From assembly GCA_018062205.1 (NCBI GenBank), contig JAGOSP010000003.1, positions 17,220 through 81,219 on the forward strand: a DNA stretch of 64,000 nucleotides, given 5' to 3'. The notes under the pieces were generated by a model, which had not been told where the DNA came from, made no database searches, and saw only the letters and a program-made list of their open reading frames with translations. How positions within the stretch are numbered: the first letter of the stretch is position 1; each line of letters starts with the position of its first letter. The position numbers were made by a program, and so were the translations under genes. Positions 1 to 51,472 of the stretch are shown piece after piece. This DNA is from Candidatus Moraniibacteriota bacterium (GTDB lineage Bacteria; Patescibacteriota; Minisyncoccia; Moranbacterales; UBA1568).

Positions 1-667
1 CCGTCGGAAAATCAGGACCCTTAATAAAGCCCATCAAATCATCAATAGTCGCTTCCGGATGATCAATCAGATGACAGATACCATCTACAAGTTCATTCAG
101 GTTGTGTGGTGGGATATTCGTTGCCATTCCAACTGCAATACCCACAGTACCGTTCAATAAAAGCTGCGGGAGTTTCGCTGGCAATACAGTTGGTTCTTCA
201 TGTACACCGTCAAAGTTCGGAATAAAATCAACCGTATCTTTCTCAATATCCAAAAGCATTTCTTCGGCAATTGGAGATAATTTTGCTTCTGTATAGCGGT
301 AAGCTGCAGCTCCGTCTCCATCCATTGAGCCGAAGTTCCCTTGTCCCCAAATAAGTGGGTACCGCAACGAAAAGTCCTGCGCCATGCGAACCATTGTGTC
401 GTACACTGCCGTATCACCATGTGGATGATATTTTCCCAGCACTTCACCGACAACCGTCGCTGATTTTCGAAATTTTGCGCTCGAACGAAGACCTGTTGAC
501 CACATGGAATACAGAATACGTCGATGTACTGGCTTTAATCCATCCCGAACATCAGGCAAAGCCCGAGCAACAATAACACTCATAGCATAATCAAGATAGG
601 ATTGTTGAACCTCATCTGTGATATTTCGTAGTTCTATTTTACCATCATGATAGTGTGAATCCGACAT
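1..667 (-). CDS. gyrA: DNA gyrase subunit A, N-terminal part (gene continues beyond window start)
   Basis: Reverse-strand translation from the ATG at 667 gives [50 protein letters not shown]...[10 protein letters not shown]...[11 protein letters not shown], i.e. the canonical GyrA N-terminus with the HPHGD motif and the catalytic-Tyr AAxRYTE motif. It is not in the ORF track because the reading frame runs off the window. Confidence 0.88.
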
Positions 668-719
668 AAATCTTCTCAATCAATTTAGCTAGTTTTCATT
701 ATTCTTATCTGTTCCCTCT

Positions 720-1073
720 CTAGTTTGCGGTCTTTTCCTCGCTGTCCCCCTGATTTTTTGTTCGCATCTCATTCTCAAAAAAATCTTCAACTGGGAGAGA
801 TTCGCTTCCCGCGTTGAGTTTTTCTCCTTTTTCAAGTAATTCTGAAAGAGATTTTGTTGTATCCGGAGAACTCGGGAGCACCGGCACGACCTGATTTTTT
901 ATATCTTCAATCCCATTTGTTTCTGCCATCGAGCGAAGTCCCTCCTGCACCGAAACAAACCAGATGCCCAAAATTAAAACCATGGTCACTGAAACATACC
1001 CAAACATATATCGACGACGAATATCTTCGGGTTTCTGACGAATTTCATCAATAGTGTCCCAGAGTGAGCGCAT
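720..1073 (-). CDS. hypothetical small membrane protein (single TM helix)
   Basis: 117-aa ORF with one hydrophobic helix (YMFGYVSVTMVLILGIWFVSV); sits between the MBL-like gene and gyrA on the same strand. Confidence 0.4.
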   Translation of the reverse strand: MRSLWDTIDEIRQKPEDIRRRYMFGYVSVTMVLILGIWFVSVQEGLRSMAETNGIEDIKNQVVPVLPSSPDTTKSLSELLEKGEKLNAGSESLPVEDFFENEMRTKNQGDSEEKTAN

Positions 1074-1083
1074 AAATACAAGT

Positions 1084-1743
1084 TTAGCTATTGCTCAAAA
1101 GAACGATTTCCACTGTTTTTCCTTCGAGATCCTTCTTTTTAACATTATATTTGAGAATAGCCTCTTCCGGGCAATTTCCCAACACATCGCAGAATTTCTT
1201 CACTTCGCCTAAAGATATCTTCATCCCTGGTAAGGCATAATGCATAGGAATGGTCACTTTCGGTTCAATTTTCCGAACAAGATCATCAATTTTATCTAAA
1301 TCTAAAGTATCCGTCCCGTCGACTGGCATAAAAAGAATGTCGACATCTCCTAGTTTTTCAATCGTAGATGGCTCCAGCTCATGCCCCAAGGAACCAAGGA
1401 AGCACAGCCGTATTTCTTCTGATTCAATCAAAAAAATAGTGTTTCTTCCTTTTTGAACACCTTTTGCATTGTCTTTAAAACTCGGAAGTCCTACCAAGGT
1501 AATTCCATTCACGGCATATTCGCCAGGAGCGTCTAGCACCAAAGGAGAGCCCTTTAAAGCAGAGTCCTCAGCAGTATCTCGTTTTTGATGAGACAAAACG
1601 ACTATATGGACCTCTCCTTGTGGGGCGCGAAGACCCGTTTCTTTATCAGGTATATCAGTAACAATAGTAATATCTTCTGTGGCTCGGCCATTCGGCTTTG
1701 TGTTTATTTTAAAGCAAAAATCACCGTAGTATTGGATATTCAT
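1084..1743 (-). CDS. MBL-fold (Lactamase_B_3/UPF0173-like) hydrolase-like protein, metal ligands apparently degenerate
   Basis: 219 aa. Overall resemblance to UPF0173 metallo-hydrolases (MxIxYxGxxxFxI start, DILFMPVDGTDTLD core), but the HxHxDH motif is not conserved. Confidence 0.5.
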   Translation of the reverse strand: MNIQYYGDFCFKINTKPNGRATEDITIVTDIPDKETGLRAPQGEVHIVVLSHQKRDTAEDSALKGSPLVLDAPGEYAVNGITLVGLPSFKDNAKGVQKGRNTIFLIESEEIRLCFLGSLGHELEPSTIEKLGDVDILFMPVDGTDTLDLDKIDDLVRKIEPKVTIPMHYALPGMKISLGEVKKFCDVLGNCPEEAILKYNVKKKDLEGKTVEIVLLSNS

Positions 1744-2063
1744 AACAGGAAAAGTAGTCGATTACTTTGGGATTGTAGCACAGAAAAATGGCACTGTCGA
1801 TACGTAAACAAGCCAAAAAAAAGATCCTTCGGCTTGTCAAAATAAGAAAGACCTGTTACACTGGTTTTGCTCGATGTAAAAAATACTTTTAAAACAATTG
1901 AATATCCGGGATGCTTTTAATCCCCCAGCTATCGACTTTCGATACGTTTTTTCTTTCATTTAAAGGCACCTCGCTTCGTTTGGGTGTTTTTTGTTTTTTA
2001 TCCTGAGTATTCGGTTTTAATTATTATTTTTCGCTACCGAACGAAATATCAAGTAAAATCTCT

Positions 2064-3224
2064 ATGTCCGAAGTAAAAAATACAGCCGAAGTAAGTCAAA
2101 TGGAAAGTCTTCTTGCGAAGCACCTCATTGAAATCCCCAGTGTTGGTGATGTTGTTCATGGCATCGTCATGAATGTTTCCTCAAACTATGCCTTAATTGA
2201 TTTGGGTGCGCTTGGAACAGGAATTGTTCTGGGAAAAGAAATGCGTGATGGGCTCGGCGCTGATGGAAAACTCAAAATAGGAGCTGAGGTCAATGCGACT
2301 TTAACAAGCTTTGAAACAGAAGAAGGCTATATTGAGCTTTCTATTCGTGAAGCCTCCTATGAAAAGTCTTGGGAAGATATCGAAGAAAAATTAAATGCTC
2401 GTGAAATCGTACAGACCAAGGTGACAGATGCCAATAAGGGCGGTCTCATGATTGAGGTGAATGGCATCAGCGGTTTCCTTCCGGTTTCCCAGCTTTCAAG
2501 TGAACATTATCCACGCGTTGAAGATGGGGACAAAAATAAAATTCTTGAATTATTGAAGAAGCTCATCGGGCAAGAAATGAGTGTTCGTATTCTTGACGCT
2601 GATCGGATTAGTGAAAAGCTGATTGTGAGCGAAAAAGCTGCTCAAAGTGAGAAGGAGCGAGAACTTATCAATCGACTTCAGGTAGGCGATATTATTGAGG
2701 GAGAAGTAAGCGGTGTTGTTGATTTTGGTGCTTTTGTGAAGTTTTCCGCTCCAGAAAATGAAACAGGGAGAAAGGCTACTGAGAAACTTGAAGGCTTGGT
2801 TCATATTTCCGAACTTGCTTGGCAACTTATCGATGATCCCCGAGAAATTATCAAGACTGGCGAGCATGTCTCAGCTAAAATTATCGGTATTGAAGATGCT
2901 CGAATTTCACTGTCCATCAAAGCACTCAAAAATGATCCTTGGGAAAAAGTGAGTGAAAAATACAAAATAGACGATGAAGTGCAAGGAAAAATCGATAAAA
3001 TCAATCACTTTGGAGCATTCGTGTATCTTGATAAAGACATCCACGGACTCGCACATGTCAGCGAGTTCTCCGATGTCTATCCAGGACGCAAAATGGAAGA
3101 GGTATTTTCTACCGGAGAAACCTATGCCTGGCGTATTCTTTCCATTGAGGCAAAGAGCCATCGACTCGGTCTCCTCCCAGTCAAAGTTGGCTCAAAAGTA
3201 AAAGAAGAAAAAGCCACTCTCTAA
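2064..3224 (+). CDS. rpsA: 30S ribosomal protein S1 (short, 4x S1-domain form)
   Basis: 386 aa with repeated S1 RNA-binding domains (GxVxGxVxxxxxFGAFVxL-type repeats, e.g. GDIIEGEVSGVVDFGAFVKF, VQGKIDKINHFGAFVYL). Confidence 0.8.
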   Translation: MSEVKNTAEVSQMESLLAKHLIEIPSVGDVVHGIVMNVSSNYALIDLGALGTGIVLGKEMRDGLGADGKLKIGAEVNATLTSFETEEGYIELSIREASYEKSWEDIEEKLNAREIVQTKVTDANKGGLMIEVNGISGFLPVSQLSSEHYPRVEDGDKNKILELLKKLIGQEMSVRILDADRISEKLIVSEKAAQSEKERELINRLQVGDIIEGEVSGVVDFGAFVKFSAPENETGRKATEKLEGLVHISELAWQLIDDPREIIKTGEHVSAKIIGIEDARISLSIKALKNDPWEKVSEKYKIDDEVQGKIDKINHFGAFVYLDKDIHGLAHVSEFSDVYPGRKMEEVFSTGETYAWRILSIEAKSHRLGLLPVKVGSKVKEEKATL

Positions 3225-3232
3225 ATCTGAAA

Positions 3233-3268
3233 GAAAACATCCCGTTTCATGTGCGGGATGTTTTCTTC
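3233..3268 (+). terminator. rho-independent terminator after rpsA
   Basis: Hairpin ACATCCCG-loop-CGGGATGT followed by TTTCTTCT. Confidence 0.6.
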
Positions 3269-3276
3269 TCAACCGT

Positions 3277-3858
3277 ATGGATACGACGCATATTTTTATT
3301 ATCTCTGGCCCAGCTGGTTCCGGGAAAGACAGCATCATAGAGTGCCTCGGAAAAAATCTTCCGCTCGAACGCTTTATCACCACTACTACCCGTGCTAAAC
3401 GTCCCGGTGAATCCGAGGGAAATCCGTACTACTTTGTTTCACAAAAAACATTTGATTCCTCCATACAACAAGGAGCTTTTATTGAGCATTCAATCAATGA
3501 GAATGGCGCATCTTATGGTATAAGCGCGACAGAACTTCACCGAGTTACTCAGAAGAAGGACTGTTTTGGTATTTGGCAAACAGATTGGAAAGGGGTTCAG
3601 AGTATCAAAAAAATCTTTCCTGGTATACCGGCGATTTTTATCAGCGCTCCCCTCAATATACTCGAAGAACGAATTCGCTCTCGAGATACCACCAAAGACG
3701 AATCCTACTTCCTTGAACGCATGAGTTACACCAAAGAATGGCTCAAATATATAGATATCTATGACTACGTTGTCACAAATGAACAAGGAAAGCTCGCTCA
3801 AGCCGTTGCAGACGTTGAGCAAATTCTCCGCAACCACACGGAAGTCTCTTCCCTTTAA
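3277..3858 (+). CDS. gmk: guanylate kinase
   Basis: P-loop ISGPAGSGKDS; TTTRAKRPGESEGNPYYFVS matches the Gmk signature (ATTRxxRxGExxGxxYxFV). Confidence 0.85.
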   Translation: MDTTHIFIISGPAGSGKDSIIECLGKNLPLERFITTTTRAKRPGESEGNPYYFVSQKTFDSSIQQGAFIEHSINENGASYGISATELHRVTQKKDCFGIWQTDWKGVQSIKKIFPGIPAIFISAPLNILEERIRSRDTTKDESYFLERMSYTKEWLKYIDIYDYVVTNEQGKLAQAVADVEQILRNHTEVSSL

Positions 3859-3880
3859 AGCAAGGCGCGTCTTAAAACAG

Positions 3881-4828
3881 GTGCAAAACTTTGCTTCAGA
3901 TACTCATCTTTTCGAAAAAAAAACATCTCTTCTTGTCGCGGTCTCAGGAGGACCAGACAGTGTTTGTCTCCTCGATATTTTAGATTTTCTTAAAAAAAAA
4001 TATTCGACAGCACTCGCTATTGCCCATGTCAATTATCAGCTCCGGGGGAAAGAAGCTTCTGGTGAAGAACTTTTTGTACGGAAGCTAGCCGAACGCTATC
4101 AAATTCCCTGTTTTGTGAAACGGTATCCAAAGAGTTCCACGAAACACGACGAAGAATCCCTAAGAAATTTCCGCTACAATTTTTTTTCCCTTCTCTCAGA
4201 AAAAAATGGTTTTCATGCTATTGCTCTTGGCCACCACAAAAACGACCAGGCCGAAACGCTTCTCATGAATCTTCTTCGGGGATCTGGCCCGCTCGGTCTC
4301 GCTGGTATGCTTCCAAAACATGGAAAATATATCCGCCCCTTATTGAATACTTCGAGAGAAGACATCATTCAGTATCTTACTTCTTGCAAACTTTCTTTTA
4401 TGCAAGATATGAGTAACACCGATAGTCACTACACGCGTAATCGTATCCGACAAGAGCTTATTCCTTTTTTGCAAGAACGATTCAATCCGAATATTATTTC
4501 CACTCTTGCTCGGTCAGCAACACTTTTTAGCGAAACTCCTCCCACACCAGAGAAACCAACGAGTACCTGCACTATTACCTACTCTCCCAGCGGTGCCAAC
4601 TTCTCTCATCTTGATTTCTGCACTCTTTCAAGTCTTGCACAAAAAACACTCCTTCGTGATATTACAAAAAATCTTTCAAGGGGCACGCATACTCCAACTC
4701 AAGCAGTGCTCAATGAATTCAGAAAAGTTATTATCGCTACAAAAACACATTCTCCTTCTATGACAGCCGGACCATTGAAATGTACCCGGAATCATGATAG
4801 AGTATTCCTGTTATATTCACTCTCTTAA
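3881..4828 (+). CDS. tilS: tRNA(Ile)-lysidine synthetase (PP-loop ATPase)
   Basis: PP-loop SGGPDS (LLVAVSGGPDSVCLL) plus conserved TilS regions (HVNYQLRG, GHHKNDQAETLLMNLLRG). The track ORF starts at 3761 but overlaps gmk; an in-frame GTG at 3881 just upstream of the PP-loop is the more plausible start. Confidence 0.75.
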   Translation: MQNFASDTHLFEKKTSLLVAVSGGPDSVCLLDILDFLKKKYSTALAIAHVNYQLRGKEASGEELFVRKLAERYQIPCFVKRYPKSSTKHDEESLRNFRYNFFSLLSEKNGFHAIALGHHKNDQAETLLMNLLRGSGPLGLAGMLPKHGKYIRPLLNTSREDIIQYLTSCKLSFMQDMSNTDSHYTRNRIRQELIPFLQERFNPNIISTLARSATLFSETPPTPEKPTSTCTITYSPSGANFSHLDFCTLSSLAQKTLLRDITKNLSRGTHTPTQAVLNEFRKVIIATKTHSPSMTAGPLKCTRNHDRVFLLYSLS

Positions 4829-4836
4829 ATATCCCT

Positions 4837-6648
4837 ATGGAAACACTACTCAAAAATTTTTGGACGATTCTTATCGTTTTTTTCGTAGTTTCTGGTGTTT
4901 TGATTCTCATTGAAACACCCCAGAATAAACCAACCAATATTTCGCTCAGCGAGCTTGTTGATCAAATCAACCAAGGAAAAGTGAAGACGGTCTCTATCAC
5001 TGGCAACGACCTCTCTATAACACTCAAAGACGACAAAAAAGAAAAGGCTTCCAAAGAGTCTGAAAGCTCTCTCACGGAAACCCTCTCTAACTATGGCGTC
5101 GACAAAGATCGACTCAAAGACGTCTCTCTCATCGTGGAAGATCCTTCCGGGGCCTCCTACTGGGCGACGCTTCTTATTCCGTTTCTTCTCCCAATTCTCC
5201 TTATCGCTGGATTTATCTGGTTTATGTTGAGACAAGCTCAGCGTGGTAATTCACAAGCTCTCTCTTTTGGAATGTCAAAAGCGCGTATCCTGGATCCGAA
5301 AGACAAGCGCAAGCGTGTTACGTTTAAAGATATCGCTGGTGCTATTGAAGCAAAGCAAGAGCTCGAAGAAATCGTTGAATTTTTGAAACATCCAAAGAAA
5401 TTTCTCGCTATGGGAGCCAAGATTCCTAAGGGAGTCCTTTTGCTTGGTCCTCCAGGAACAGGGAAAACCCTGATGGCAAAAGCAGTTGCTGGCGAAGCCG
5501 GAGTCCCCTTCTTCAATATCTCTGGATCAGAATTTGTGGAAATGTTCGTTGGTGTTGGAGCCTCCCGCGTACGAGACCTTTTCAAGCAAGCAAAGAAAAA
5601 TTCTCCCGCTATCGTATTTATCGATGAAATTGATGCTGTAGGTCGTCATCGTGGAGCCGGACTCGGTGGTGGTCACGACGAACGAGAACAGACTCTCAAT
5701 CAGATCCTCGTTGAAATGGATGGATTTGAAACAGAAACCAGCGTCATCGTTGTTGCTGCTACTAATCGCCCTGACGTTCTTGATCCTGCGCTCCTCCGTC
5801 CCGGACGATTTGATCGTCGCGTCACTATGGATTTACCCGACATCAACGAACGCGAACAAATACTCAAAATTCATTCCAAAGGAAAGCCCGTAGCAGAATC
5901 AGTCAATGTTCGACGACTTGCAGAGAGAACTTCAGGCTTTTCTGGAGCGGATTTGGCAAATCTTGTTAACGAAGCAGCTATTCTTGCCACGCGACGTGAT
6001 AAAAAAACTATTGATATGGATGAATTAATTCTGTCTATCGAGAAGGTCATTCTTGGCCCAGAACGAAAGAGTAGGGTCGTGAATCCAAAAGAAAAAGAGG
6101 TTGTTGCTTATCACGAAGGTGGCCACGCCCTCGTTGCTGCTTCGCTTCCACATGCTGATCCAGTTCACAAAGTCTCTATTGTATCCCGCGGTCACGCTGG
6201 AGGATACACGCTTGCTGTACCAAGTGAAGACAAATATCTCCACTCAGAGGCTTATTTTCTTGATGAATTAGCAACTCTCCTTGGCGGATATGCAAGTGAA
6301 AAATTAGTTTTCAATAATACTACGACAGGGCCATCCAATGATCTCGAGCGAGCAACACATATGGCACGAAGCATGGTTACTCGTTATGGAATGAGCCAGC
6401 TTGGTGCACGTACATTTGGGCATAAAGATGAGCTTGTTTTTCTTGGAAAAGAGCTCCACGAAGATCGAAACTACTCTGAAAAAACAGCCGAGCAGATCGA
6501 CAATGAAGTTACCCGTCTTATCGATGAATCCCTCAAGAAAGCCACTAGTATTCTTATTAAACGCCGCGAAACACTCAATGCCATCGCGACAACTCTCTTA
6601 GAAAAAGAAACTATAGAAAAAGATGAGTTTGAAGCGCTTGTAAAATAG
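4837..6648 (+). CDS. ftsH: ATP-dependent zinc metalloprotease FtsH
   Basis: N-terminal TM anchor, AAA+ Walker A GPPGTGKT, Walker B IVFIDEID, second-region-of-homology, and zinc-protease HEGGHA motif. Confidence 0.95.
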
Positions 6649-6776
6649 ACTCCCTCCTTTTTCTTCTATTACCGATGACTCTCACCTCTCTCTGTTACAC
6701 AGACTAAAGATTACTTCTCTTTATTTCTAGAAAGAGATACCTCCTATTTGCCAACTCTGATTTTTTCCATCTTTTT

Positions 6777-7670
6777 ATGTCACCCTTATTTCGAGTTCAA
6801 GCACTCATTTCTCGAACTTGGTATACAACATATGCCAACCCAAGTCTTTTAGTGTTTGGATTTTTAATTTCTATCATTACGCTCTCTCTTAATAGCTCTC
6901 TCTTCCCTTACACCGAAGCGCTTACCAATGGATTCTCGGAAAATATTTTTCGTATATTTTCTCCGTTTTTCCTCGCTTTTATTTTACTCGGACTCCTTTG
7001 TAAAACACTCGCTTCAAGCCAAATTTTTATTCTCGCGGCAAGCGAATTTCTTCAACGACCAACACTCCTCACCTTTCGTCATCGTTTCAGGAGTGCTTTT
7101 GTCTACGCGGGCATAGAGATATTCTACACGCTCCTTCTTATCTTCGCCTTTATCCTCCTCGCCCTTCCTTCGATATCAGAAAAAGAGCTGGCAGGACCCT
7201 TCTCTTCTATCATAATAAACATCTCTCTTGTCATTTTTTTTATCATAGCTATTTTTACCACAATCATAAAACACCTTGTTGTTGGATATTTCTTTCTTTC
7301 CCCTATTCGTTTACGTTCAAGTCTGCAGCTTTCCACTAAACTCTTCGTTCGATATCAATACTTCTCATTTTTTTCCTTCCTTTTCATTCTTCTTTTTTCT
7401 CTCCTCTTTACAATTCTTGAGAATCTCGTTATGCTTCAATACGTATTTATCGAGCGATTTTTACCCGGAATAGCACCGGAAACGTTCATTTATACAGCGC
7501 TCTTGTTCGCATACACCTTCGTATCAGTTTTTTCTGAGGTATTTTGGCTCCATTTCTTTCTTCTTCTAACCAATAAAAAACAGAAGTCTACAGATTCTCT
7601 ACCTCTTCTTCAAAAAGAACTCGGAGAAGTGTCGCCTATACCATCACAAAAAACCTTTCCGTTAGACTAA
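6777..7670 (+). CDS. hypothetical polytopic membrane protein
   Basis: 297 aa, ~7 hydrophobic helices, no recognisable motif. Confidence 0.45.
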   Translation: MSPLFRVQALISRTWYTTYANPSLLVFGFLISIITLSLNSSLFPYTEALTNGFSENIFRIFSPFFLAFILLGLLCKTLASSQIFILAASEFLQRPTLLTFRHRFRSAFVYAGIEIFYTLLLIFAFILLALPSISEKELAGPFSSIIINISLVIFFIIAIFTTIIKHLVVGYFFLSPIRLRSSLQLSTKLFVRYQYFSFFSFLFILLFSLLFTILENLVMLQYVFIERFLPGIAPETFIYTALLFAYTFVSVFSEVFWLHFFLLLTNKKQKSTDSLPLLQKELGEVSPIPSQKTFPLD

Positions 7671-9002: not shown

Positions 9003-9995
9003 CTACAAATCTACAGGTATCAAATCTATCCCAAGTTTTTTAAATTCAGCTTGTATATCGGATGCCAAGCTTGTAGCGAAACCAAGCAAACCTTGTACTT
9101 GTGAAAGTAATGAAATTTGTCCCATCGGATCGTTCCCAACCTCACCAAAAGCATCTGCCAATCCAATAGAAAAAAGCGCTAATTGCAAAGCTTTTACATG
9201 CGTTGAGACCATATTTTCTGGAACCTCAATATCCTTAACGTTATTCAAAAAAACTTCTGCCTTTCCCTTGTTTTTCAAAAGAACAGCGAAATTCCCCGTT
9301 GAAAGGGCACTCATAATATCGCTCACCATCGAAGATGCGGCTAAATCCAAATCTCCATTATTTTTTAAGGCAATTGGCGAGTTGTTTGCTACCAAATAAG
9401 ACAAGGCGGTAAGGTATTCTATTGTTGCATCCTTTTCCCTCTTTAAACATTTCTCTTCCTCTTCTGAATCCTTACATTTTATCTTTTTGATATGAATACT
9501 CTTAATATCCACCTCCGGAAATTCAACATTCACTCTTGACTGCTGGAGCAGTTGTTCAACTGAATCATTAATATCTTGCATTTTCACCGACGAATTTTCA
9601 CTGGAAACATTAGACAATATGCCCACCACCTCCCGCGATGCCGCTTCTGTAACATTTGTTGTTTTTGATTCCGTTGGCATATCATCATACCCACCTCTAC
9701 CAAGACCATCCTCAGGTGTACTTAATTTGTCTCCTGGCGCAGGCCTCAGTGGATCATACCCACTTTCAACTTCAATACCATCGTTATAACTATCACCATC
9801 AGTGTCTTTTACGAAAGGATCGGTGCCAAATATTCTTTCTTCCTCATCACTCAAACCATCTTGATCTGCATCACGAAAAAGAGAATATTCCTTTGTATCC
9901 TGCTCATCTGCAGAAACATAAAACCCTACTGACAAAGCCAGTAGAACAAAAAAAATAAAGCTTGTTTTTTGAGGAAAAGTAAAAATATTTTTCAC
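9003..9995 (-). CDS. hypothetical secreted protein with thrombospondin-type-3-like calcium-binding Asp repeats
   Basis: 330 aa. Signal peptide, then DADQDGLSDEEE...DPFVKDTDGDSYNDGIE (DxDxDG repeats). Lies 8 bp upstream of the preceding secreted-protein gene, so probably co-transcribed. Confidence 0.5.
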   Translation of the reverse strand: MKNIFTFPQKTSFIFFVLLALSVGFYVSADEQDTKEYSLFRDADQDGLSDEEERIFGTDPFVKDTDGDSYNDGIEVESGYDPLRPAPGDKLSTPEDGLGRGGYDDMPTESKTTNVTEAASREVVGILSNVSSENSSVKMQDINDSVEQLLQQSRVNVEFPEVDIKSIHIKKIKCKDSEEEEKCLKREKDATIEYLTALSYLVANNSPIALKNNGDLDLAASSMVSDIMSALSTGNFAVLLKNKGKAEVFLNNVKDIEVPENMVSTHVKALQLALFSIGLADAFGEVGNDPMGQISLLSQVQGLLGFATSLASDIQAEFKKLGIDLIPVDL

Positions 9996-10323
9996 AGTTT
10001 TCTTTTGAGTTATTATATCATGTCTGTTGCAAATTACGAATAGCGCAGCAGGTATCTATTTCATTTCCCTAAAAAAGTATCTTGATCTATTTTTTTTCTT
10101 TGCTGTTTTAACCTTACTCCACAAAGCATGTTAATCTCCTTATCTTTTTGTAAATATAAAATTTTGATGTCCCTTTTTTTATCTTAAGATTATATTCTTT
10201 GCTCTCCACAAAAGCACAAATAACACTTTTAGACTCTATAAACCACAGTTTCTCTTCCAAATTAAAAAACCTCTGCATTCAATATTGTTATTCAGAAAAC
10301 ATCCTACTGTTTTTCTATATAAT

Positions 10324-11209
10324 GTTCCACGTGGAACATTAATGAAGTAAATGGAAATTTTACACTGACTCTTGAAATTGTTCCACGTGGAAAATATAAT
10401 TTGTAATTGCTTGATAAAAACGGGAGTTCCTATCCATTCCACGTGGAACAATTTCCAATACAAGGATTCATTTGTTTACTAGATGCAATTTGTTCCACGT
10501 GGAAAAAATTGGTTCCTGACTGAAGATATCTCTCTTCCGGATATTCTTTTACCTTTTCCACGTGGAACAATTTTCGGTACATGTTTATGAGAGATGATAT
10601 TCTCTCTTTGTTCCACGTGGAAAAGAAAAGCGTTTAAATCAAAAACTCAGAAACAGACTTCTTTGTGATTTGTTCCACGTGGAACGTATAAGTTAGTCAT
10701 CCGGAATCAAATAGGCTGTTTAGGTCTTTTGAAGCCAGTTGTGACCCAAAAAAAGGATAAAAATTATTCTTGCCACAATCTTTGAATCCTTTTAAATCGT
10801 TTCACGTGGAACAATTCATGTATTTCGGACTGTCCTCATGAGGAATTATTCCACGTGGAACATTAATGAAGTAAATGGAAATTTTACACTGACTCTTGAA
10901 ATTGTTCCACGTGGAAAATATAATTTGTAATTGCTTGATAAAAACGGGAGTTCCTATCCATTCCACGTGGAACAATTTCCAATACAAGGATTCATTTGTT
11001 TACTAGATGCAATTTGTTCCACGTGGAAAAAATTGGTTCCTGACTGAAGATATCTCTCTTCCGGATATTCTTTTACCTTTTCCACGTGGAACAATTTTCG
11101 GTACATGTTTATGAGAGATGATATTCTCTCTTTGTTCCACGTGGAAAAGAAAAGCGTTTAAATCAAAAACTCAGAAACAGACTTCTTTGTGATTTGTTCC
11201 ACGTGGAAC
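10324..11209. repeat. array of 16 parS-like palindromes [T]GTTCCACGTGGAAC[A]; 15 intact, 1 degenerate TTTCACGTGGAAC
   Basis: Palindrome starts at about 10324, 10380, 10437, 10492, 10556, 10610, 10672, 10799 (degenerate), 10849, 10904, 10961, 11016, 11080, 11134, 11196. Centre-to-centre spacing is 54-64 bp within each 362-bp duplicated unit, with a ~127-bp gap to the degenerate site at 10799. The intervening sequences are unique within a unit. Core TTCCACGTGGAA is invariant. The site matches the Bacillus parS TGTTCCACGTGAAACA / consensus TGTTTCACGTGAAACA at 14-15 of 16 positions. Confidence 0.8.
10325..10686. repeat. direct repeat copy A (362 bp, contains 7 palindromes)
   Basis: Identical to 10849-11210 by eye (offset 524 bp); the ORF track shows identical artefactual peptides (MYWKLFHVEWIGTPVF...) from both copies. 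Confidence 0.85.
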
Positions 11210-11210
11210 A
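10849..11210. repeat. direct repeat copy B (362 bp, contains 7 palindromes)
   Basis: Perfect copy of 10325-10686. Confidence 0.85.
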
Positions 11211-11417
11211 CTAAATGTAGTCTAAAATTTGATTTTATTTTATTTTTATTTTATAATATCAATTAAATAGTCCGTTAGCTCTTCCTCTCTTCTCAAAAAA
11301 ATAATTATTCTCTTTCTATTTCAGAGAAAAACGATTCTCGTTACTCTTTTTATTAAAAACCTAAAAAGTTGACTCTTTGAGAAAGATTTGCCATATTGGT
11401 AATTGTCACAAACTACT

Positions 11418-11490
11418 GGGCCATTAGCTCATTTGGTAGAGCGCTCCCATGGCATGGGAGAGGTGACCGGTCCGAATCCGGTATGGTCCA
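11418..11490 (+). tRNA. tRNA-Ala (anticodon GGC)
   Basis: Acceptor GGGCCAT/ATGGTCC with the G3:U70 wobble pair (the alanine identity element), anticodon loop ATGGCAT, T-loop TCCGAAT. Confidence 0.8.
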
Positions 11491-11661
11491 CACCCAATAA
11501 TACCAATTTTTGGCTACATAAAGCCTTAAAATATAATTCCATACATCGTTGTTCTTACAAATGATGTCACTGGAAACAGAATTTTTCAGTTATTTATTAA
11601 GAAATGGTCTATTTCTAGCTACTAAAAGCGAAGGGTCCTCCCTAAAATATACCGTCTTTTT

Positions 11662-11736
11662 GCCTCCGTAGTTCAATGGATAGAACAAATCCGTCCTAAG
11701 GATGAAATAGAGGTTCGATTCCTCTCGAGGGCACCA
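11662..11736 (+). tRNA. tRNA-Arg (anticodon CCT), CCA encoded
   Basis: D-arm GTTCAATGGATAGAAC, anticodon loop GTCCTAA, T-arm AGAGGTTCGATTCCTCT, 3' CGAGGGC-A-CCA; one C:A mismatch in the acceptor stem. Confidence 0.65.
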
Positions 11737-34108: not shown

Positions 34109-35743
34109 TTGACAACTCTATCAGTCTTTCAAAAAAAAATCAAGTCTCCTGTTATCCACTATAAACTCCCATTAATCCACATCATCAAAGACCGTGTTCT
34201 CTGGAAAAGGAAAAAACTACGTGCTATAATAGCATTTACTCACAAAAATACCCTCGTCAAACCAGTCGCAAGCGCTTCTTATACTATAAAATGTGCATTT
34301 GTGGATAATTCGAATCTCATCCCGTTTGAAGCGCTTTGGAAAGCTGTCCTTGATCAGATTGAACTTTCAATCTCTCGAGCAAATTTTGTCACTTGGTTTA
34401 AAAACACTTCTATTCTCTCTTTAGAAAACGGGAAAGTTATTATTGGCGTCCCAAATGGTTTTGCAAAAGAGTGGCTAGAAAATAAATACAATCACTACCT
34501 TCTTCGTGCCTTCCACTCCGTACAAAGTGAGGTTTCTGAAATTCATTGCCAAATTACCCCTGATAAACCAATCACACCCGCACTCCCTCGCGAACCCATA
34601 CGTTCTCTTGATATGATACAACGGCCGTCTCTTGATGGTTTTTTGCGAAAAAAACTCACTGGATCACCTTCTGTTCGGCCACAACTTGAGTTTTCGCAAG
34701 AAAAGCCACACAACAATAATCTTAATACACGCTACCTTTTTGAAAATTTCATCGTAGCTGAAAATAATGAGCTCGCAAAAGCAGCCTGTTATGCTGTTTC
34801 TCAAAATCTTGGAACTACTTACAACCCACTTTTTATTTACGGAGGGGTTGGACTCGGAAAAACACACCTTCTTCAATCAATCGGTAATGAAATATCCCAA
34901 CATTTTCCGGAAAAGAAAATAAAATATATCACATCCGAGCGCTTTACTACCGAACTTATCGACTCAATAAAAACTCAAAAAACCGACCAATTTAAGGAAT
35001 ATTACCAACAAATGGATCTTCTTATCATTGATGATGTCCAATTTCTTTCTGGAAAAGAAAAAACCCAAATAGAATTCTTTCATATTTTTAATGCTCTCTA
35101 TCAGTTGAACAAACAAATTGTTATTTCAAGCGATCGCCCACCAAAGGCGATCGCCACCCTTGAGGATCGTCTTCGGTCTCGATTTGAGGGAGGTATGATT
35201 ACCGATATTAGTCGCCCAAACCTCGAAACCCGTATCGCTATTCTTGAAGCAAAGGCTCATGAGCGAAATATTTCTATTGATGAACATTCAATACGGTTTA
35301 TTGCTGAACATATCACCCAAAATATCCGAGAGCTCGAAGGTGCCCTCAATAGAATTCATGCTTTTTCTGAATTCCACAAAATACCCACTACCCTTGCTGT
35401 AACAACAAGAGTATTAGAGCAATTAATAGAAAATAATAGAAAAAGTATTAAATCTGAAGATATATTTCGTGTCATAATTGATTACTATGGCGTATCCGAA
35501 GAAAGCCTCATTAAAAAAGGACGTAAAAAAGAAATTGTTCATTCTCGACAAATGACAATGTATCTTCTTCGAAATGAGCTCCAAATGTCACTTGCTTCTA
35601 TTGGTACAGCTTTAGGAGGAAGAGATCACACAACAGTGCTTCATGCTTGTGAAAAAATAGAAAAAGGCCTCCACGAAAACATCCGCCTAAAAGAAGAGCT
35701 CAACACCCTTAAAGAGCGCCTTTATTATGCTACCTGTGGATAA
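34109..35743 (+). CDS. dnaA: chromosomal replication initiator protein DnaA
   Basis: Walker A GGVGLGKTHLL, IIDDVQFL (Walker B), sensor/arginine-finger region, C-terminal DNA-binding domain (SLASIGTALGGRDHTTVLHA). The N-terminus probably starts at in-frame GTG 34301 (…VDNSNLIPFEALWKAVLDQ). Confidence 0.92.
   Translation: MTTLSVFQKKIKSPVIHYKLPLIHIIKDRVLWKRKKLRAIIAFTHKNTLVKPVASASYTIKCAFVDNSNLIPFEALWKAVLDQIELSISRANFVTWFKNTSILSLENGKVIIGVPNGFAKEWLENKYNHYLLRAFHSVQSEVSEIHCQITPDKPITPALPREPIRSLDMIQRPSLDGFLRKKLTGSPSVRPQLEFSQEKPHNNNLNTRYLFENFIVAENNELAKAACYAVSQNLGTTYNPLFIYGGVGLGKTHLLQSIGNEISQHFPEKKIKYITSERFTTELIDSIKTQKTDQFKEYYQQMDLLIIDDVQFLSGKEKTQIEFFHIFNALYQLNKQIVISSDRPPKAIATLEDRLRSRFEGGMITDISRPNLETRIAILEAKAHERNISIDEHSIRFIAEHITQNIRELEGALNRIHAFSEFHKIPTTLAVTTRVLEQLIENNRKSIKSEDIFRVIIDYYGVSEESLIKKGRKKEIVHSRQMTMYLLRNELQMSLASIGTALGGRDHTTVLHACEKIEKGLHENIRLKEELNTLKERLYYATCG
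34150..34182 (+). promoter_or_regulatory. DnaA boxes upstream of dnaA (TTATCCACT, TTAATCCACA)
   Basis: 9-mer matches to TTATCCACA at 34152-34160 and 34172-34181, upstream of the likely GTG start at 34301. Confidence 0.55.
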
Positions 35744-36024
35744 TTATGTATAAACACGCTTTTTACCTGGACATCGCCTCTATAATTCCATTTTATCTGT
35801 GGAAAAAATAGAATACTTTTTATTCACATTCCTCTATGATTAATTATCCTCGTTTTTATCCCACTCAATATTCAAATAAACTAACTCGTATTTCCTTCCA
35901 AAGAAGGAAGAAACAGACTTATCAACTTATCCACACTCCTAATAATAATAAGACTTTTTTTAAAAAATGGATTAATTCTTACTAAAGAAAAATCTCCCTT
36001 AATTCAAATTGTTTAAATATTTCT
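35744..36024. promoter_or_regulatory. candidate oriC (dnaA-dnaN intergenic): DnaA boxes plus AT-rich unwinding element
   Basis: Perfect TTATCCACA at 35927-35935, TGTGGAAAA (reverse TTTTCCACA) at 35798-35806, TTATCCCAC at ~35856-35864. An AT-rich stretch follows at 35936-36020 (AATAATAATAAGACTTTTTTTTAAAAAATGG...). Confidence 0.6.
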
Positions 36025-37155
36025 ATGAAACTTATTTGTACCCAAGAAAATCTTTCCCGATCAATCACTTACCTTGAGCGTATCACAGGGAAACAATCAA
36101 CATTACCTATATTGAGTAATATTCTTATTGAGGCTGAAAATGGGCGATTAAAACTCTCAGCAACTAATCTTGAGATTGGGGTAATTGTTAATATTGGTGC
36201 AAAAATAGAAGAAGAGGGAAAGATAACTATTCCAGCTAAACTTATAGGAAGTTTTATACATAATCTTCCTTCTGGGGATATTTTAAATCTTCAAACGGAA
36301 CAATCATCCCTTGTTATTCAAAGCACACAATATGAGGGGAAAATTAAAGGTATGGATGGAAAGGATTTTCCTATCATCCCTTGTTTTCAGGGCGAAGAAT
36401 ACCCATTTGTTTTTCCAGCTCAGTTTTTTAAAAACGCTCTTTCACAGATACTTTTTTGTGTAAGTCAAAATGAATCGCGAATGGAATTAACAGGGGTGAA
36501 TGTTTCTTTTGAAGAGAAATTCCTTTATTTAGCCGCCACAGATAGTTTTCGATTGGCTGAACAGACGTTTGAGCTTCCTTATGAAACACCGTCTACGCAG
36601 TCATTTATTATTCCAAGTGCAACATGTCAGGAGTTGCTTCGGATTATCACCCAGGAGAGCAAGGAGGTATTTGTAGCAATTGAAGAAAATCAGGCATTTT
36701 TTGAGGTGGATGGAGTAAAGATTGTTTCTCGGCTTATACATGGGAAATATCCTGATTATAAACAAATTATACCCATATCATTTCTTTCAACGTATCAAAT
36801 AAAAAGGGAGGAGCTTGTTCGCGCTGTAAAAATAACCAGCGTACTCTCTTCATATAATGCAGGAGAAATAACAATACGATTTACGGCTGGTTCTTCGGAG
36901 TGTAGTATTGAAGCGGTTTCTCAGGAAGTAGGTCAAAATAAAGCTCGTGTTCGTATTGAAAATCAATCAGGTGAAGATTTAGAACAAATTTTTACTTTTA
37001 ATCCGCGGTATGTTCTCGAGGGTTTAAACGCTTTTAAAGGAGAGTATGTTGTTTTTCATATAAACAATGCAACATCACCGGTAGTGTTGCGAGAAAAAGA
37101 GGGAGAGAAAGAAAAGGCACAATACTTCTATATCATGATGCCGGTACGAAAGTAG
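36025..37155 (+). CDS. dnaN: DNA polymerase III beta subunit (sliding clamp)
   Basis: 376 aa; MKLICTQENLSRSITYLERITG...LSATNLEIG, three-domain clamp size; follows dnaA. Confidence 0.9.
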   Translation: MKLICTQENLSRSITYLERITGKQSTLPILSNILIEAENGRLKLSATNLEIGVIVNIGAKIEEEGKITIPAKLIGSFIHNLPSGDILNLQTEQSSLVIQSTQYEGKIKGMDGKDFPIIPCFQGEEYPFVFPAQFFKNALSQILFCVSQNESRMELTGVNVSFEEKFLYLAATDSFRLAEQTFELPYETPSTQSFIIPSATCQELLRIITQESKEVFVAIEENQAFFEVDGVKIVSRLIHGKYPDYKQIIPISFLSTYQIKREELVRAVKITSVLSSYNAGEITIRFTAGSSECSIEAVSQEVGQNKARVRIENQSGEDLEQIFTFNPRYVLEGLNAFKGEYVVFHINNATSPVVLREKEGEKEKAQYFYIMMPVRK

Positions 37156-48412: not shown

Positions 48413-51400
48413 TTAGATCTCGGTGACTCGTTTGACTTCTTCAAATGAAGTATGGCCCTCAAGTACAGCCAAAATTCCATCTTGTGTCATGGTGATCATC
48501 CCGAGTTTGATAGCGCGTTCTTCAATCTCATGTACGAGAGCACCTCTTCCAATAAGCTCCTGAATCTCAGTCTCCACAGGAAGGGCTTCGGTAAGAGTTA
48601 TTCGTCCAATGTATCCTGTACCATTACAAGATGGGCATCCGGTTGCGCGCCAAATTGTTCGAGAGCTTGGAATATCAATACCAGCAGCCGGTGAAATGGA
48701 CTGAACGACTAATTCGATAAGAGCAAGCTCTTCGGCGGCGGGAGTCGATTCTTGTTTGCAATGAGTACAGAGTTGGCGAACGAGTCTTTGTGCCATAAAG
48801 AGATTGCTTGCATTAGCAAGATCATCCGGCGAGGTATTCATTTTGAGTAAACGTGAAACCGTTCCGGCTGCGGAATTAGCATGGAGCGTGGAAAGAACAA
48901 GGTGCCCGGTTGAGGCAGCTTGAATGGCCGCTTCAGCGGTTTCGTTGTCACGGATTTCACCAATCATAATAATATCTGGATTTTGGCGCATCAATGACCG
49001 AAGAGCGGTAGCGAATGTGTAGCCAGCTTCCTCGTTGGTTTGTGTTTGGAGAAGGCCAGCTATTTGATATTCGATCGGGTCTTCAACGGTGATGATTTTA
49101 ATTTCTGGTTTGTTGAGACGAGCGAGAACACTATACAGGGTGGTTGTTTTTCCAGATCCAGTTGGGCCAGTATTGAGTATCATGCCGTATGGTTTTTCGA
49201 TAGCCACAAGGAGCTTATCGAGACTTTGTTGGCGGATATGGAGCGATGTGAGATCGAGTTTTGTGACAGACTGGTTGAGAAGTCTCATGACGACTGTTTC
49301 GCCGAAGCCACCAAGAATGATAGAGAGACGAATGTCCACCTTATTTCCGGTAATATTTTCATTTTCTTTTTCCAAATTGACAGAGAACCGGCTATCAGTA
49401 ATACCGGCAGCCTCTCCAGATTTGAGACCACCAAGAAGTTTAATCTCACCAATAAAACTAGGGTATTCATTGAGAGGAAATGAGGCAACGGTTTGAAGTA
49501 TGCCATCAATCCGGAAGCGGACTTCGAATGTGGCTTCGTTTGGCTCGATATGAATGTCTCCGGCCTTCATGATAATAGCAGCTGCAAATAGAGTAGAGAG
49601 TCGCAAATGAGAATCTTGTTTTTCAGCGAATTCCGCGAAACTTTGAAGTGAAATTAAAGACTGTTTTGTTTCTGCGAAGAGGGCTTCCGTGATGAGTGAG
49701 GCGCGAGAAAGCGAACTTGGCATGAGCTTGGCATAGATGTTTTGGAGAATCTCAGTTTGGTCGGCAACTCTCCAGACCTCATCAAGAGTGGTAATACCCT
49801 CGAGCGCCTTGAGAATACCATCTTGAGTCATGGTGATCATGCCGTTTTCGAGAGCGACTTTGAAAATTTCTTCTTCGCTCCCCATATTGCTGATGATTTC
49901 TGAAATCTCAGGAGTTATAGTGAGCACCTCAAAAATACCGATTCGTCCTTTATATCCTGTCATGTGACAATGCTGGCAACCTTTTATCTGCCAAAGCCCC
50001 TCGATATTTTTTGGAAGAGAAACCTTTGCTTTTGGTGAAATAATAGAAATGAGTCGGGTAATAGAGCTGAATGTTTCTTTGGCAGGCACGTAGGATACGC
50101 GACAGTGCGTGCAGAGTTTCCGAACAAGACGCTGGGCGATGATAATGTTTATGGCCGAAGTAATAAGCGAGGGCTTGACACTGAGCTCAACGAGTCGTGG
50201 TACTGCAGCTGCGGCAGAGTTGGCATGGATAGTCGAAAAGAGAAGATGCCCCGTGAGGGCAGCATTAATAGCAATGTCTGCTGTTTCGTCATCTCGAATC
50301 TCACCGACTAATACGATATCTGGGTCTTGACGAACAATAGCGCGGAGGGCAGTCGCAAAGGTGTAGCTTCGATCCTTAGCAACTTCGGTCTGGACTATCC
50401 CTGGGAGTGAGTATTCAATCGGATCTTCGATGGTGATGATTTTTGTGCCGGCATTATTCAGCGTTGAGAGAAGCGTATACAACGTTGTTGTTTTCCCGGA
50501 TCCAGTTGGGCCGGCATTGAGTATCATGCCATGTGGCTTTCGGATTTCTTTGAGGACTTGTTCGTTGGCGAGACCGCGGAGGCCAAGGTCATTCACATTA
50601 ACGATGATGTCATCGCTTGATAACAGTCGCATATTGATACTCTCGCCGTACTTTCCGGGAATCGAGTTTACGCGGATATCAATACGCTTTCCGTCGATAT
50701 CGATGTAAAAATGTCCATCTTGAGCCTCTTTTCTGATATTTAGTCGCATTTTCCCGAGCATTTTGACGCGAGAGAGGAGAAGATGATAGACAGCTTCCGG
50801 TAAATTACCAATGTCCTGAAGAACGCCATCAATACGAAAACGAAGTCGGGTGGTAGCCTCCTCTGTTTCGAAGTGGATGTCGCTGGCATCGAGTTTTTTG
50901 GCTCCAGCTAAGATGATTTCCATAGCACGAGAGGTATTAATCTCACGGCTGTCTTTCAAAGAAAGGAGCTGAGCAAAATCTTGATCAAATTGTTCGAGAT
51001 CTTGACCGTTTAACGAAACACGAACCAGGTCAAGATTATCAATGAACGTACGACGTTTATATTGCTCGATAGCCCGATTGAAAGATGGTTGTGAGACGAC
51101 GTATATCTCACTTTCCCACCCGTGTTGTTCGCTGATTTCAGCGATAAAATCCAGTGTAGCTTGATTGTTTGGATTAAGAATAGCAAAACGTACCTCGAGT
51201 GTTTTTTTGTGGAAAAGAACGACGTTGAGTTCGAGAGATTTCTTTTCTGGTATCAGGAGTACATCTTCAGAACCGATAGGAAAGATATGGAGGTCGATAT
51301 AGGGATAGCCAGAATTTTGAGCAAGCTGTGAGGCAACCTCTTCAATAGAATCATTTCTGAGTTTTTTGAGAATCAGCGCAGTCTTTTCGATTTTTGGGTC

Positions 51401-51472
51401 AATGCTCCCGCCATTTTGGACAACTGTGACCATAATTTTTTTGTTTATGATTACGTTTATTTTAGCGCACAA
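48413..51472 (-). CDS. pilB: type IV pilus/type II secretion ATPase (GspE/PilB family), tandem-duplicated: two complete N2+ATPase modules in one polypeptide
   Basis: 1019 aa. Module 1: Walker A ILNAGPTGSGKTTT, Asp box, Walker B DPDIVLVGEIRD, His box GHLLFSTIHAN, CxxC...CxxC. Module 2: ILNTGPTGSGKTTT, DPDIIMIGEIRD, GHLVLSTLHAN, CTHC...CPSC. Each module is preceded by an N2-like domain (DIHFETEEATTRLRFRIDGVLQ / DIHIEPNEATFEVRFRIDGILQ). A single GSPII_E_N-like domain sits at the N-terminus. Confidence 0.85.
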   Translation of the reverse strand: MCAKINVIINKKIMVTVVQNGGSIDPKIEKTALILKKLRNDSIEEVASQLAQNSGYPYIDLHIFPIGSEDVLLIPEKKSLELNVVLFHKKTLEVRFAILNPNNQATLDFIAEISEQHGWESEIYVVSQPSFNRAIEQYKRRTFIDNLDLVRVSLNGQDLEQFDQDFAQLLSLKDSREINTSRAMEIILAGAKKLDASDIHFETEEATTRLRFRIDGVLQDIGNLPEAVYHLLLSRVKMLGKMRLNIRKEAQDGHFYIDIDGKRIDIRVNSIPGKYGESINMRLLSSDDIIVNVNDLGLRGLANEQVLKEIRKPHGMILNAGPTGSGKTTTLYTLLSTLNNAGTKIITIEDPIEYSLPGIVQTEVAKDRSYTFATALRAIVRQDPDIVLVGEIRDDETADIAINAALTGHLLFSTIHANSAAAAVPRLVELSVKPSLITSAINIIIAQRLVRKLCTHCRVSYVPAKETFSSITRLISIISPKAKVSLPKNIEGLWQIKGCQHCHMTGYKGRIGIFEVLTITPEISEIISNMGSEEEIFKVALENGMITMTQDGILKALEGITTLDEVWRVADQTEILQNIYAKLMPSSLSRASLITEALFAETKQSLISLQSFAEFAEKQDSHLRLSTLFAAAIIMKAGDIHIEPNEATFEVRFRIDGILQTVASFPLNEYPSFIGEIKLLGGLKSGEAAGITDSRFSVNLEKENENITGNKVDIRLSIILGGFGETVVMRLLNQSVTKLDLTSLHIRQQSLDKLLVAIEKPYGMILNTGPTGSGKTTTLYSVLARLNKPEIKIITVEDPIEYQIAGLLQTQTNEEAGYTFATALRSLMRQNPDIIMIGEIRDNETAEAAIQAASTGHLVLSTLHANSAAGTVSRLLKMNTSPDDLANASNLFMAQRLVRQLCTHCKQESTPAAEELALIELVVQSISPAAGIDIPSSRTIWRATGCPSCNGTGYIGRITLTEALPVETEIQELIGRGALVHEIEERAIKLGMITMTQDGILAVLEGHTSFEEVKRVTEI

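Follow-up and report, generated by a model that had tools for sequence, protein, structure and literature searches.

The 64,000-nt stretch of contig JAGOSP010000003.1 analysed here (the window, numbered from its first letter) contains, between a secreted-protein gene and a tRNA gene, a dense array of 15 parS sites, which is very probably the chromosomal centromere of this Candidatus Moranbacteria genome, a parS cluster that would load the ParB protein. The array shows sites with the sequence of known chromosomal parS, a position close to the replication origin, a motif that is linked to parAB genes in other phyla, conservation at the same locus in related species, a footprint in which the sites are conserved and the spacers are not, and an organization in which a multi-site unit is itself repeated. 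Labels such as L121 and L274 designate other fetched contigs, and the coordinates of the features are collected in Table 1.

Composition and identity of the parS sites

The motif scan of the 64 kb shows the exact core TTCCACGTGGAA in 14 of the 15 sites, and the remaining site, at 10800, reads TTTCACGTGGAA. Both the constant core and the degenerate eighth copy had been described in an earlier prediction made from this DNA (the original prediction), which had counted 16 palindromes where 15 are found. By chance, 0.15 core matches would be expected in 64 kb, and none of 100 shuffles reaches 15. The array is real, is at the predicted place and is far above chance. No further copy of the parS motif was found outside the array in the 64 kb, nor in 17 kb of flanks, and 15 of the 16 CACGTG hexamers of the window fall within the array. 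The gene-free setting between the secreted-protein gene and tRNA-Ala was also as described, the interval being 9996-11417.

Perfect palindromes are fewer than predicted. Only two of the 15 sites are perfect over 16 bp (10323-10338 and 11195-11210), the site at 10671-10686 is perfect across 14 bp, and 11 sites are perfect over the 12-bp core only: nine of these have one mismatched pair in the 16-mer and two (10435 and 10959) have both outer pairs mismatched. The description of the sites as perfect palindromes of 14-16 bp holds, therefore, for three of them. Every site retains at least one perfect 8-bp half-site, TGTTCCAC, and the comparison with the validated 16-mer TGTTCCACGTGGAACA shows no mismatch in two sites, one in nine and two in four.

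The sites are 16-bp inverted repeats of the chromosomal parS type (consensus TGTTNCACGTGAAACA or variant TGTTCCACGTGGAACA). The 16-mer TGTTCCACGTGGAACA is parS2 and parS3 of Pseudomonas aeruginosa (PMC4368675), and GTTCCACGTGGAAC, which it contains, is the oligonucleotide bound by Myxococcus xanthus ParB in electrophoretic mobility shift assays (PMC3899335). Judged by its letters, the array site is more than parS-like: its sequence has been validated by experiment as a chromosomal parS and equals that of P. aeruginosa parS2/3, rather than being one or two substitutions away from a known parS, as had been proposed.

Position relative to the replication origin

The dnaA gene (34109-35743) is followed by dnaN, and both are downstream of yidC and jag. 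DnaA-box clusters are found only at 34152-34308 and 35735-35935, and the cumulative GC skew shows a single minimum, at 35-37 kb. The distance from the end of the array to dnaA is 22.9 kb, in agreement with the ~23 kb given by the original prediction, and it places the array in the origin-proximal position of chromosomal parS sites. A separate observation concerns the dnaA start: the fragment 34109-34330 includes four DnaA boxes (34152-34308) within the first 200 nt of the longest dnaA open reading frame (ORF), which has a TTG start, and the DnaA_N domain starts at residue 75 of this ORF. The true start codon is probably downstream of the TTG, and the boxes at 34152-34308 are probably part of oriC.

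Linkage of parS clusters to parAB across bacteria

Pairs of cores 35-65 nt apart were searched in one genome per GTDB species, and at least 120 loci were recovered, each as a fixed 8-kb block. The matches listed belong to Acidobacteriota, Myxococcota, Bacteroidota, Planctomycetota, Verrucomicrobiota, Bacillota, Actinomycetota and groups of the candidate phyla radiation (CPR). The strict ParB motif GERRxRA is encoded in 47 of the 120 genome blocks listed (39%) and the ParA motif KGGVGKTT in 58 of them, and in the parAB-linked blocks the sites are usually 100-400 bp upstream of parA; by our own estimate, parB is expected in well under 1% of random 8-kb blocks. A similar scan of metagenomes, which also gave at least 120 loci, many of them on short contigs, shows GERRxRA in 25 and the ParA Walker motif in 49 of the 120 listed. 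Because of this linkage, paired cores are regarded as genuine chromosomal parS across bacteria, and clustering as common. The co-occurrence with parAB is seen in non-CPR phyla, and adjacency was found in none of the approximately 15 CPR loci. Tight arrays had been considered a hallmark of plasmids and phages, a view that does not stand: a chromosomal cluster is known in M. xanthus (22 sites in 3 kb), and the core-pair scans show chromosomal parS clusters in hundreds of genomes.

Conservation of the array in related Moranbacteria

Relatives were anchored by their FtsH homologues, and the percentages in Table 1 are FtsH identities to the window. A comparison across related genomes had been proposed with the original prediction. 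In four relatives it shows the array to be conserved, with 9-30 sites, at the orthologous position, which lies in the interval from the TSP3 gene to rbfA. The TSP3-repeat gene adjoins the array in all relatives examined, and other contigs either stop at the array or have a 100-N gap at this place.

The footprint was obtained by aligning one unit each from the window, L274 and L276, whose sites pair one to one. Three-way identity is found in 84% of site columns versus 17% of spacer columns, and the order of the spacings is kept across the three species (48/49, 56, 54-56, 54-56, 53-65, 55-60 and 61-62). In 112 half-sites (56 distinct sites from five species), positions 1-2 are T in 89% and G in 82%; because these positions are outside the search core and are still kept, the full 16-bp parS is conserved. 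Both results are the mark of purifying selection on the parS sites, and they indicate that the spacing and all 16 bp of parS are under selection, whereas the sequence in between is not.

Two further features were seen in the relatives. Many sites of L274, L276 and L278 show a central CATGTG or CACATG in place of CACGTG (e.g. TGTTCCATGTGGAACA), a recurrent CG-to-TG/CA change at the dyad centre which appears to be tolerated. In addition, the unit includes one copy of a 28-bp element, AAAATTATTCTTGCCACAATCTTTGAAT, which has kept its sequence to within 0-3 mismatches in the window, in L274 (16275 and 16800) and in L276 (16020, 16524 and 17028), while nearby spacers have diverged. The next site follows 10-13 bp after the element; in the window this is the degenerate site 8, and in L274 and L276 it is the site that opens the following unit. 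The element may act as a weak promoter or be bound by a protein as a second type of site.

Tandem organization and site density

The window array is a 524-bp unit repeated 1.69 times. The 10325-10685 and 10849-11209 blocks show 100% identity with an offset of 524 bp; thus, the duplication described by the original prediction is confirmed, but its unit of 362 bp is not. Spacing between consecutive sites is 56, 56, 56, 63, 55 and 62 bp in each block, and the degenerate site 8 has a gap of 127 bp before it and 49 bp after it. This range of 55-63 bp, and the gap, agree with the 54-64 bp and ~127 bp reported before; so does the lack of relationship among the spacers, which are ~44-51 bp long and mutually unrelated within one unit.

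The unit periods were measured by script, since 504-525 bp exceeds the 500-bp ceiling of Tandem Repeats Finder. L274 has a 525-bp unit repeated ~2.7 times and L276 a 504-bp unit repeated 3.45 times, with 1,237 bp perfectly periodic, so that a tandem unit of 504-525 bp with 8 sites is common to the window and its two closest relatives. Higher-order periodicity was found neither in the more distant L278 and L280 nor in Myxococcus (L003), Hyalangium and the other dense clusters sampled. Tandem amplification of an ancestral ~8-site array probably took place in the subclade of the window, with the copies homogenised within each genome and diverging between species. Unequal recombination of the 8-site unit of 504-525 bp would make the array grow or shrink, with copies identical within a genome and spacers that diverge between species.

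With 15 sites in 900 bp, the window array has the highest density of 241 sampled loci, the runner-up having 10, and the duplication accounts for half of this density. The best 900 bp hold 15 sites in L274 and 16 in L276, both of them outside the 241-locus sample, where the arrays are longer and of similar density.

Assembly of the repeated units

The scaffold of an NCBI metagenome-assembled genome (MAG), GCA_017991955.1, is identical to the window array except for a 100-N gap in the left block, and five other short-read contigs terminate at or within the array. The sites are therefore certain, but the number of units is assembly-dependent. Contigs of the Moranbacteria clade ending at a parS array are L124, L146-L150, L275, L279 and L281, and 100-N gaps at the array are found in L121 (1193-1292) and L277 (16114-16213). 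The size of the array is probably under-reported in published MAGs of this clade. In practical terms, parS arrays break short-read assemblies of Moranbacteria at a predictable spot.

Proposed ParB loading and alternative explanations

The original prediction had inferred a centromere-like platform for ParB loading, or an unusual segregation hub near oriC, and this is supported by the site identity, the parAB linkage, the origin proximity and the conservation of the array. A ParB encoded elsewhere in the genome would bind the array sites. From established ParB biology, each 16-bp site would be a nucleation and loading point for a dimer of the chromosomal ParB CTPase: parS binding would lead to CTP-dependent closure of the clamp, and the clamps would slide to the adjoining DNA. 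Fifteen sites with a spacing of ~57 bp would give a very high loading rate and a single large ParB complex ~23 kb from oriC, which would be a handle for origin segregation, by ParA if this is present, and probably for SMC loading too.

Three groups of results weigh against this centromere. ParA and ParB are absent from the window, as had been stated before, according to Pfam on ORFs of at least 120 aa, motif regular expressions and a local ParB hidden Markov model built from 72 ParB ORFs; they are also absent from the 7-kb left (L121) and 10-kb right (L126) flanks, with ~81 kb of genome covered in all, and neither was found in the flanks of any CPR-type array locus examined. Because no ParA or ParB is beside the CPR arrays, the parAB adjacency of other phyla is missing here and the binder is putative. 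In addition, 13 of the 15 sites differ from the perfect 16-mer by 1-2 bases, which may affect their affinities, and the number of repeat units depends on assemblies often broken at the array.

The absence of parB near every CPR array examined also favours a non-canonical binder, either a Noc/KorB-type ParB paralogue or an unrelated protein in a ParB-less lineage, with a function in nucleoid organisation or membrane anchoring. The clusters inside a membrane-protein gene in other CPR genomes, described below, hint at unusual biology in the same direction, and a literature search for parS or ParB in Patescibacteria, CPR or Saccharibacteria found nothing relevant. Nevertheless, positions 1-2 and the CACGTG centre are what distinguish parS from the Noc-binding site, and the array is exactly canonical in both; moreover, a 16-bp site conserved across phyla is most simply read by a conserved protein, and such a binder is considered unlikely. 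An operator array for a CACGTG-binding transcription factor, controlling the divergent secreted-protein operon, the tRNA genes or both, is very unlikely. The array is between divergently oriented genes, and in two places a site fills the 17-bp spacer of an 11/12 sigma-70-like match, TTGAAA-N17-TATAAT, on the + strand (10372-10400 and 10896-10924). However, promoter-like matches are not enriched (nine found versus 6.7 expected), and the promoter-like context is not kept in L274 and L276, which do keep the sites; since the match is not conserved in the sister species, it was treated as chance. All 15 sites are in one block and no other promoter in the 64 kb has the motif, so promoter-proximal sites at several genes, as expected of an operator, are not found there; 9-30 operators for a single operon would be without precedent, and what is repeated is parS, a pan-bacterial motif with parAB linkage in other phyla.

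A captured partition site of a plasmid or phage, or a part of an integrated element, had been an option of the original prediction and is highly improbable. With its dense, short inverted repeats the array recalls plasmid centromeres, F sopC for example, and the GC content over the array region falls to 0.34-0.36, but this dip is ordinary for an intergenic region and the sequence is that of chromosomal-type parS. Integrase, rep and partition genes are all missing beside the array, which shows neither the partition operon of its own nor the mobile replicon or integrated element that define a plasmid or phage centromere. BLAST against 72,556 plasmid and 50,697 phage records gave no match, a result which concerns extended similarity only, because 16-bp sites cannot reach the E-value threshold. 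A scan of viral contigs gave 16 loci, mostly of two or three sites and with a maximum of five over 4.4 kb, without any dense array and with the ParB motif in none of the 16. Furthermore, species whose FtsH identity is as low as 77% have the array at the corresponding locus, which indicates vertical inheritance. An iteron-type secondary origin, suggested before together with the operator array, or a DnaA-titrating locus has a negligible probability: the sites are repeated in an AT-rich non-coding block and their TTCCAC half-site weakly resembles the DnaA-box core TCCAC, but no DnaA box with one mismatch or fewer is found between 8,982 and 13,714, a rep gene is missing, and the GC skew, which has its sole minimum at dnaA, does not change course at 10-11 kb, so that neither an iteron origin nor a DnaA-box origin is recognised at the array.

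Almost nil is also the probability of a guide-RNA array, similar to clustered regularly interspaced short palindromic repeats (CRISPR) or to tandem interspaced guide RNA (TIGR) arrays, or of a mobile palindrome such as repetitive extragenic palindromic sequences or miniature inverted-repeat transposable elements. Short conserved palindromes with unique ~44-51-bp spacers have a superficial repeat-spacer appearance, and TIGR arrays are known in CPR bacteria. TIGR units, however, have 36 nt with two 10-nt repeats and 8-12-nt spacers, whereas the units here have 55-63 bp with a single 12-16-bp palindrome. The window ORFs include no cas gene and no Nop-domain tas gene, the spacers are duplicated along with the repeats, Rfam finds only tRNAs and no RNA family in the array, and the element is not dispersed in the window; the array is, on these grounds, neither of the TIGR nor of the CRISPR type.

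Comparison with known centromeres

The site, its function and chromosomal parS clusters as such are already known. M. xanthus has 22-24 parS sites in ~3 kb, ~4 kb upstream of parA (PMC3899335, PMC3778016). Its cluster, which is bound by ParB in vitro, shares with the window array the site GTTCCACGTGGAAC and the grouping of many sites in one block near the origin. The window array, in contrast, is ~2.3 times denser (one site per 59 bp versus one per ~139 bp), consists of a tandem multi-site unit, a periodicity not seen in Myxococcus L003, and is not near parAB, in a CPR genome of probably less than 1 Mb versus 9 Mb. P. aeruginosa has four sites near oriC, parS1-parS4, one of which is sufficient (PMC4368675, PMC5098823). 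Both organisms share the 16-mer TGTTCCACGTGGAACA, the origin-proximal position and the presence of perfect sites alongside sites with 1-2 mismatches, but the four Pseudomonas sites are outside any sub-kilobase array and here 15 are within 0.9 kb.

The resemblance to the sopC centromere is in its dense and regular 16-bp inverted repeats. In F-plasmid sopC, a 43-bp repeat occurs 12 times in tandem, and SopB/ParB-F binds the 16-bp inverted repeat within each copy. It loads a ParB-family CTPase, as proposed for the array; however, sopC is plasmid-borne and next to sopAB, its sites differ in sequence from those of the array, and its simple tandem repeat includes the spacers, whereas here the spacers are unique within the unit, the 524-bp unit is what repeats, and the locus is chromosomal and vertically inherited. 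Alpha-satellite centromeres carry the CENP-B box in fast-evolving monomers arranged in higher-order repeats. By analogy only, the array shares with them a conserved box, tandem multi-monomer units, homogenisation within the genome together with divergence between species, and a variable number of units (1.7, 2.7 and 3.45 here); it has no homology with them, is a thousandfold smaller in scale and is sequence-defined instead of epigenetic. The features of the Moranbacteria array that appear to be new are its density, its organization as a repeat of repeats that evolves in concert, the lack of adjacent parAB genes, its presence in a CPR genome and the contrast with a gene-embedded form.

parS clusters inside Wzy-like genes of other CPR genomes

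Other CPR genomes show 7-13 parS sites in-frame within one ORF encoding a membrane protein of the Wzy_C (O-antigen-ligase-like) type. Coding-gene parS sites are known, such as that of Bacillus subtilis within spo0J, which leaves the ORF undisrupted, but the known cases are single sites, whereas the Wzy-like genes hold 7-13 of them, in all three frames, in one ORF. The palindrome is stop-free in all frames and is translated as FHVE, STWN or PRGT, in loops right after transmembrane helices, and one of the embedded sites makes up the conserved motif YLNVSRGT. In the 120 best of 693 homologues, FHVE, STWN and PRGT occur 198, 170 and 296 times, versus ~0.2 each expected from composition, counts for which the retrieval was biased because the query itself contained these words. 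The homologues are annotated as 'O-antigen ligase family protein' and belong to Moranbacteria, Parcubacteria and Patescibacteria, and in those that lack the words the corresponding positions carry decayed relics (FHMK, CSAWN and VPSGT).

The gyrA-MBL-S1-kinase-tilS-ftsH block is syntenic across Moranbacteria (L017 and L271-L273 versus window 1-7670 and L121). In L017 and L271 the Wzy gene immediately follows gyrA, within the block that shares its gene order with window 1-7670; in the clade of the window, gyrA is followed by rpsO-NYN-pnp and the non-coding array is ~10 kb away, on the other side of ftsH. No remnant of a Wzy gene is detectable beside gyrA in this clade. The window array was also considered as a decayed Wzy gene and this was rejected: tblastn matched only the words encoded by the palindromes, and none of the Wzy core motifs. 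A parS-like core with one mismatch was observed inside gyrA, at L271:13926, near the Wzy-embedded cluster.

Because the Wzy-embedded cluster follows gyrA elsewhere and the array is non-coding in the clade of the window, a relocation of the centromere within Moranbacteria, between the gene-embedded and the non-coding form, is suggested as a tentative hypothesis. Equally tentative, and judged somewhat less likely than not, is the wider proposal that centromeres in Moranbacteria and CPR bacteria related to them follow, in miniature, the evolutionary pattern of satellite centromeres. According to this proposal, the ancestral state may have been a parS cluster of 7-13 sites in-frame in a Wzy-like gene beside gyrA; the non-coding array may have replaced it and may have been amplified, by the 8-site unit of 504-525 bp and with concerted evolution of the copies, to 15, 23 and 30 sites in three sister species; and the family members with decayed in-gene sites may represent lineages where the centromere moved.

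Features of the window and of related loci

The features are shown in Table 1. Apart from the array, the window contains at 48413-51472, on the - strand, a 1,019-aa ORF whose single product combines two T2SSE (PilB-like secretion ATPase) regions as a tandem fusion, which is unusual.

Table 1. Coordinates of the parS array, its surroundings, the arrays of relatives and the Wzy-embedded clusters.
Feature	Sequence	Position	Strand	Description
Whole parS array	Window	10323-11210	none	888 bp with 15 sites; ORFs of at least 80 aa absent
Block A	Window	10325-10685		Sites 1-7; 16-mers start at 10323, 10379, 10435, 10491, 10554, 10609, 10671
Linker between blocks A and B	Window	10687-10846		Contains degenerate site 8 and the conserved 28-bp element
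Block B	Window	10849-11209		Sites 9-15; 16-mers start at 10847, 10903, 10959, 11015, 11078, 11133, 11195
Perfect 16-bp parS	Window	10323-10338	none	TGTTCCACGTGGAACA; identical to P. aeruginosa parS2/parS3 (PMC4368675)
Perfect 16-bp parS	Window	11195-11210	none	TGTTCCACGTGGAACA
Site 8, degenerate	Window	10798-10813	none	CGTTTCACGTGGAACA; canonical GTTTCAC half-site
Conserved 28-bp linker element	Window	10760-10787	+	AAAATTATTCTTGCCACAATCTTTGAAT; once per repeat unit
Gene-free interval	Window	9996-11417		Contains the array
Left boundary gene	Window	9003-9995	-	330-aa secreted protein with bacterial TSP3 repeat
tRNA-Ala(GGC)	Window	11418-11491	+	Right boundary
tRNA-Arg(CCT)	Window	11662-11736		After tRNA-Ala(GGC)
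Replication origin region (reference)	Window	34109-36025	+	dnaA, DnaA-box clusters, cumulative GC-skew minimum
Array of relative	L274			93% FtsH; 23 sites in 1.4 kb
Array of relative	L276 (605-kb contig)			92% FtsH; 30 sites in 1.8 kb
Array of relative	L278			86% FtsH; 9 sites
Array of relative	L280 (652-kb contig)			77% FtsH; 16 sites, 9.5 kb from dnaA
Array of relative	L113 (Moraniibacteriota)	contig end		At least 3 perfect sites just 5' of orthologous tRNA-Arg
Wzy-embedded cluster	L015	6192-8000	-	603 aa, 10 sites
Wzy-embedded cluster	L017	6843-8000	-	10 sites
Wzy-embedded cluster	L220	2298-4550	+	L220/L237 751 aa, 10 sites
Wzy-embedded cluster	L221	3-1343	+	8 sites
Wzy-embedded cluster	L205	217-1878	-	7 sites
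Wzy-embedded cluster	L061	724-2262	-	8 sites
Wzy-embedded cluster	L271	10001-11518	+	9 sites

Implications for chromosome segregation in CPR bacteria

The parS/ParB system is the most widespread system of bacterial chromosome segregation, and the CPR, whose cells and genomes are very small, accounts for much of bacterial diversity. Canonical parS is used in the CPR at the top density of the 241 sampled loci, and sister species reach up to 30 sites in 1.8 kb. This raises the question of how CTP-gated clamps load and escape where loading sites are only ~57 bp apart, as well as the questions of why the spacing is conserved and why parB is not adjacent. The array also offers a small bacterial example of centromere turnover, with homogenised units, fast divergence of the spacers, a variable number of units and an apparent shift between gene-embedded and non-coding forms. 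If the satellite-like evolution from a gene-embedded ancestor is true, then, more speculatively, a centromere located in such a gene could anchor the origin region at the membrane, by coupled transcription, translation and membrane insertion of the polytopic protein that it encodes.

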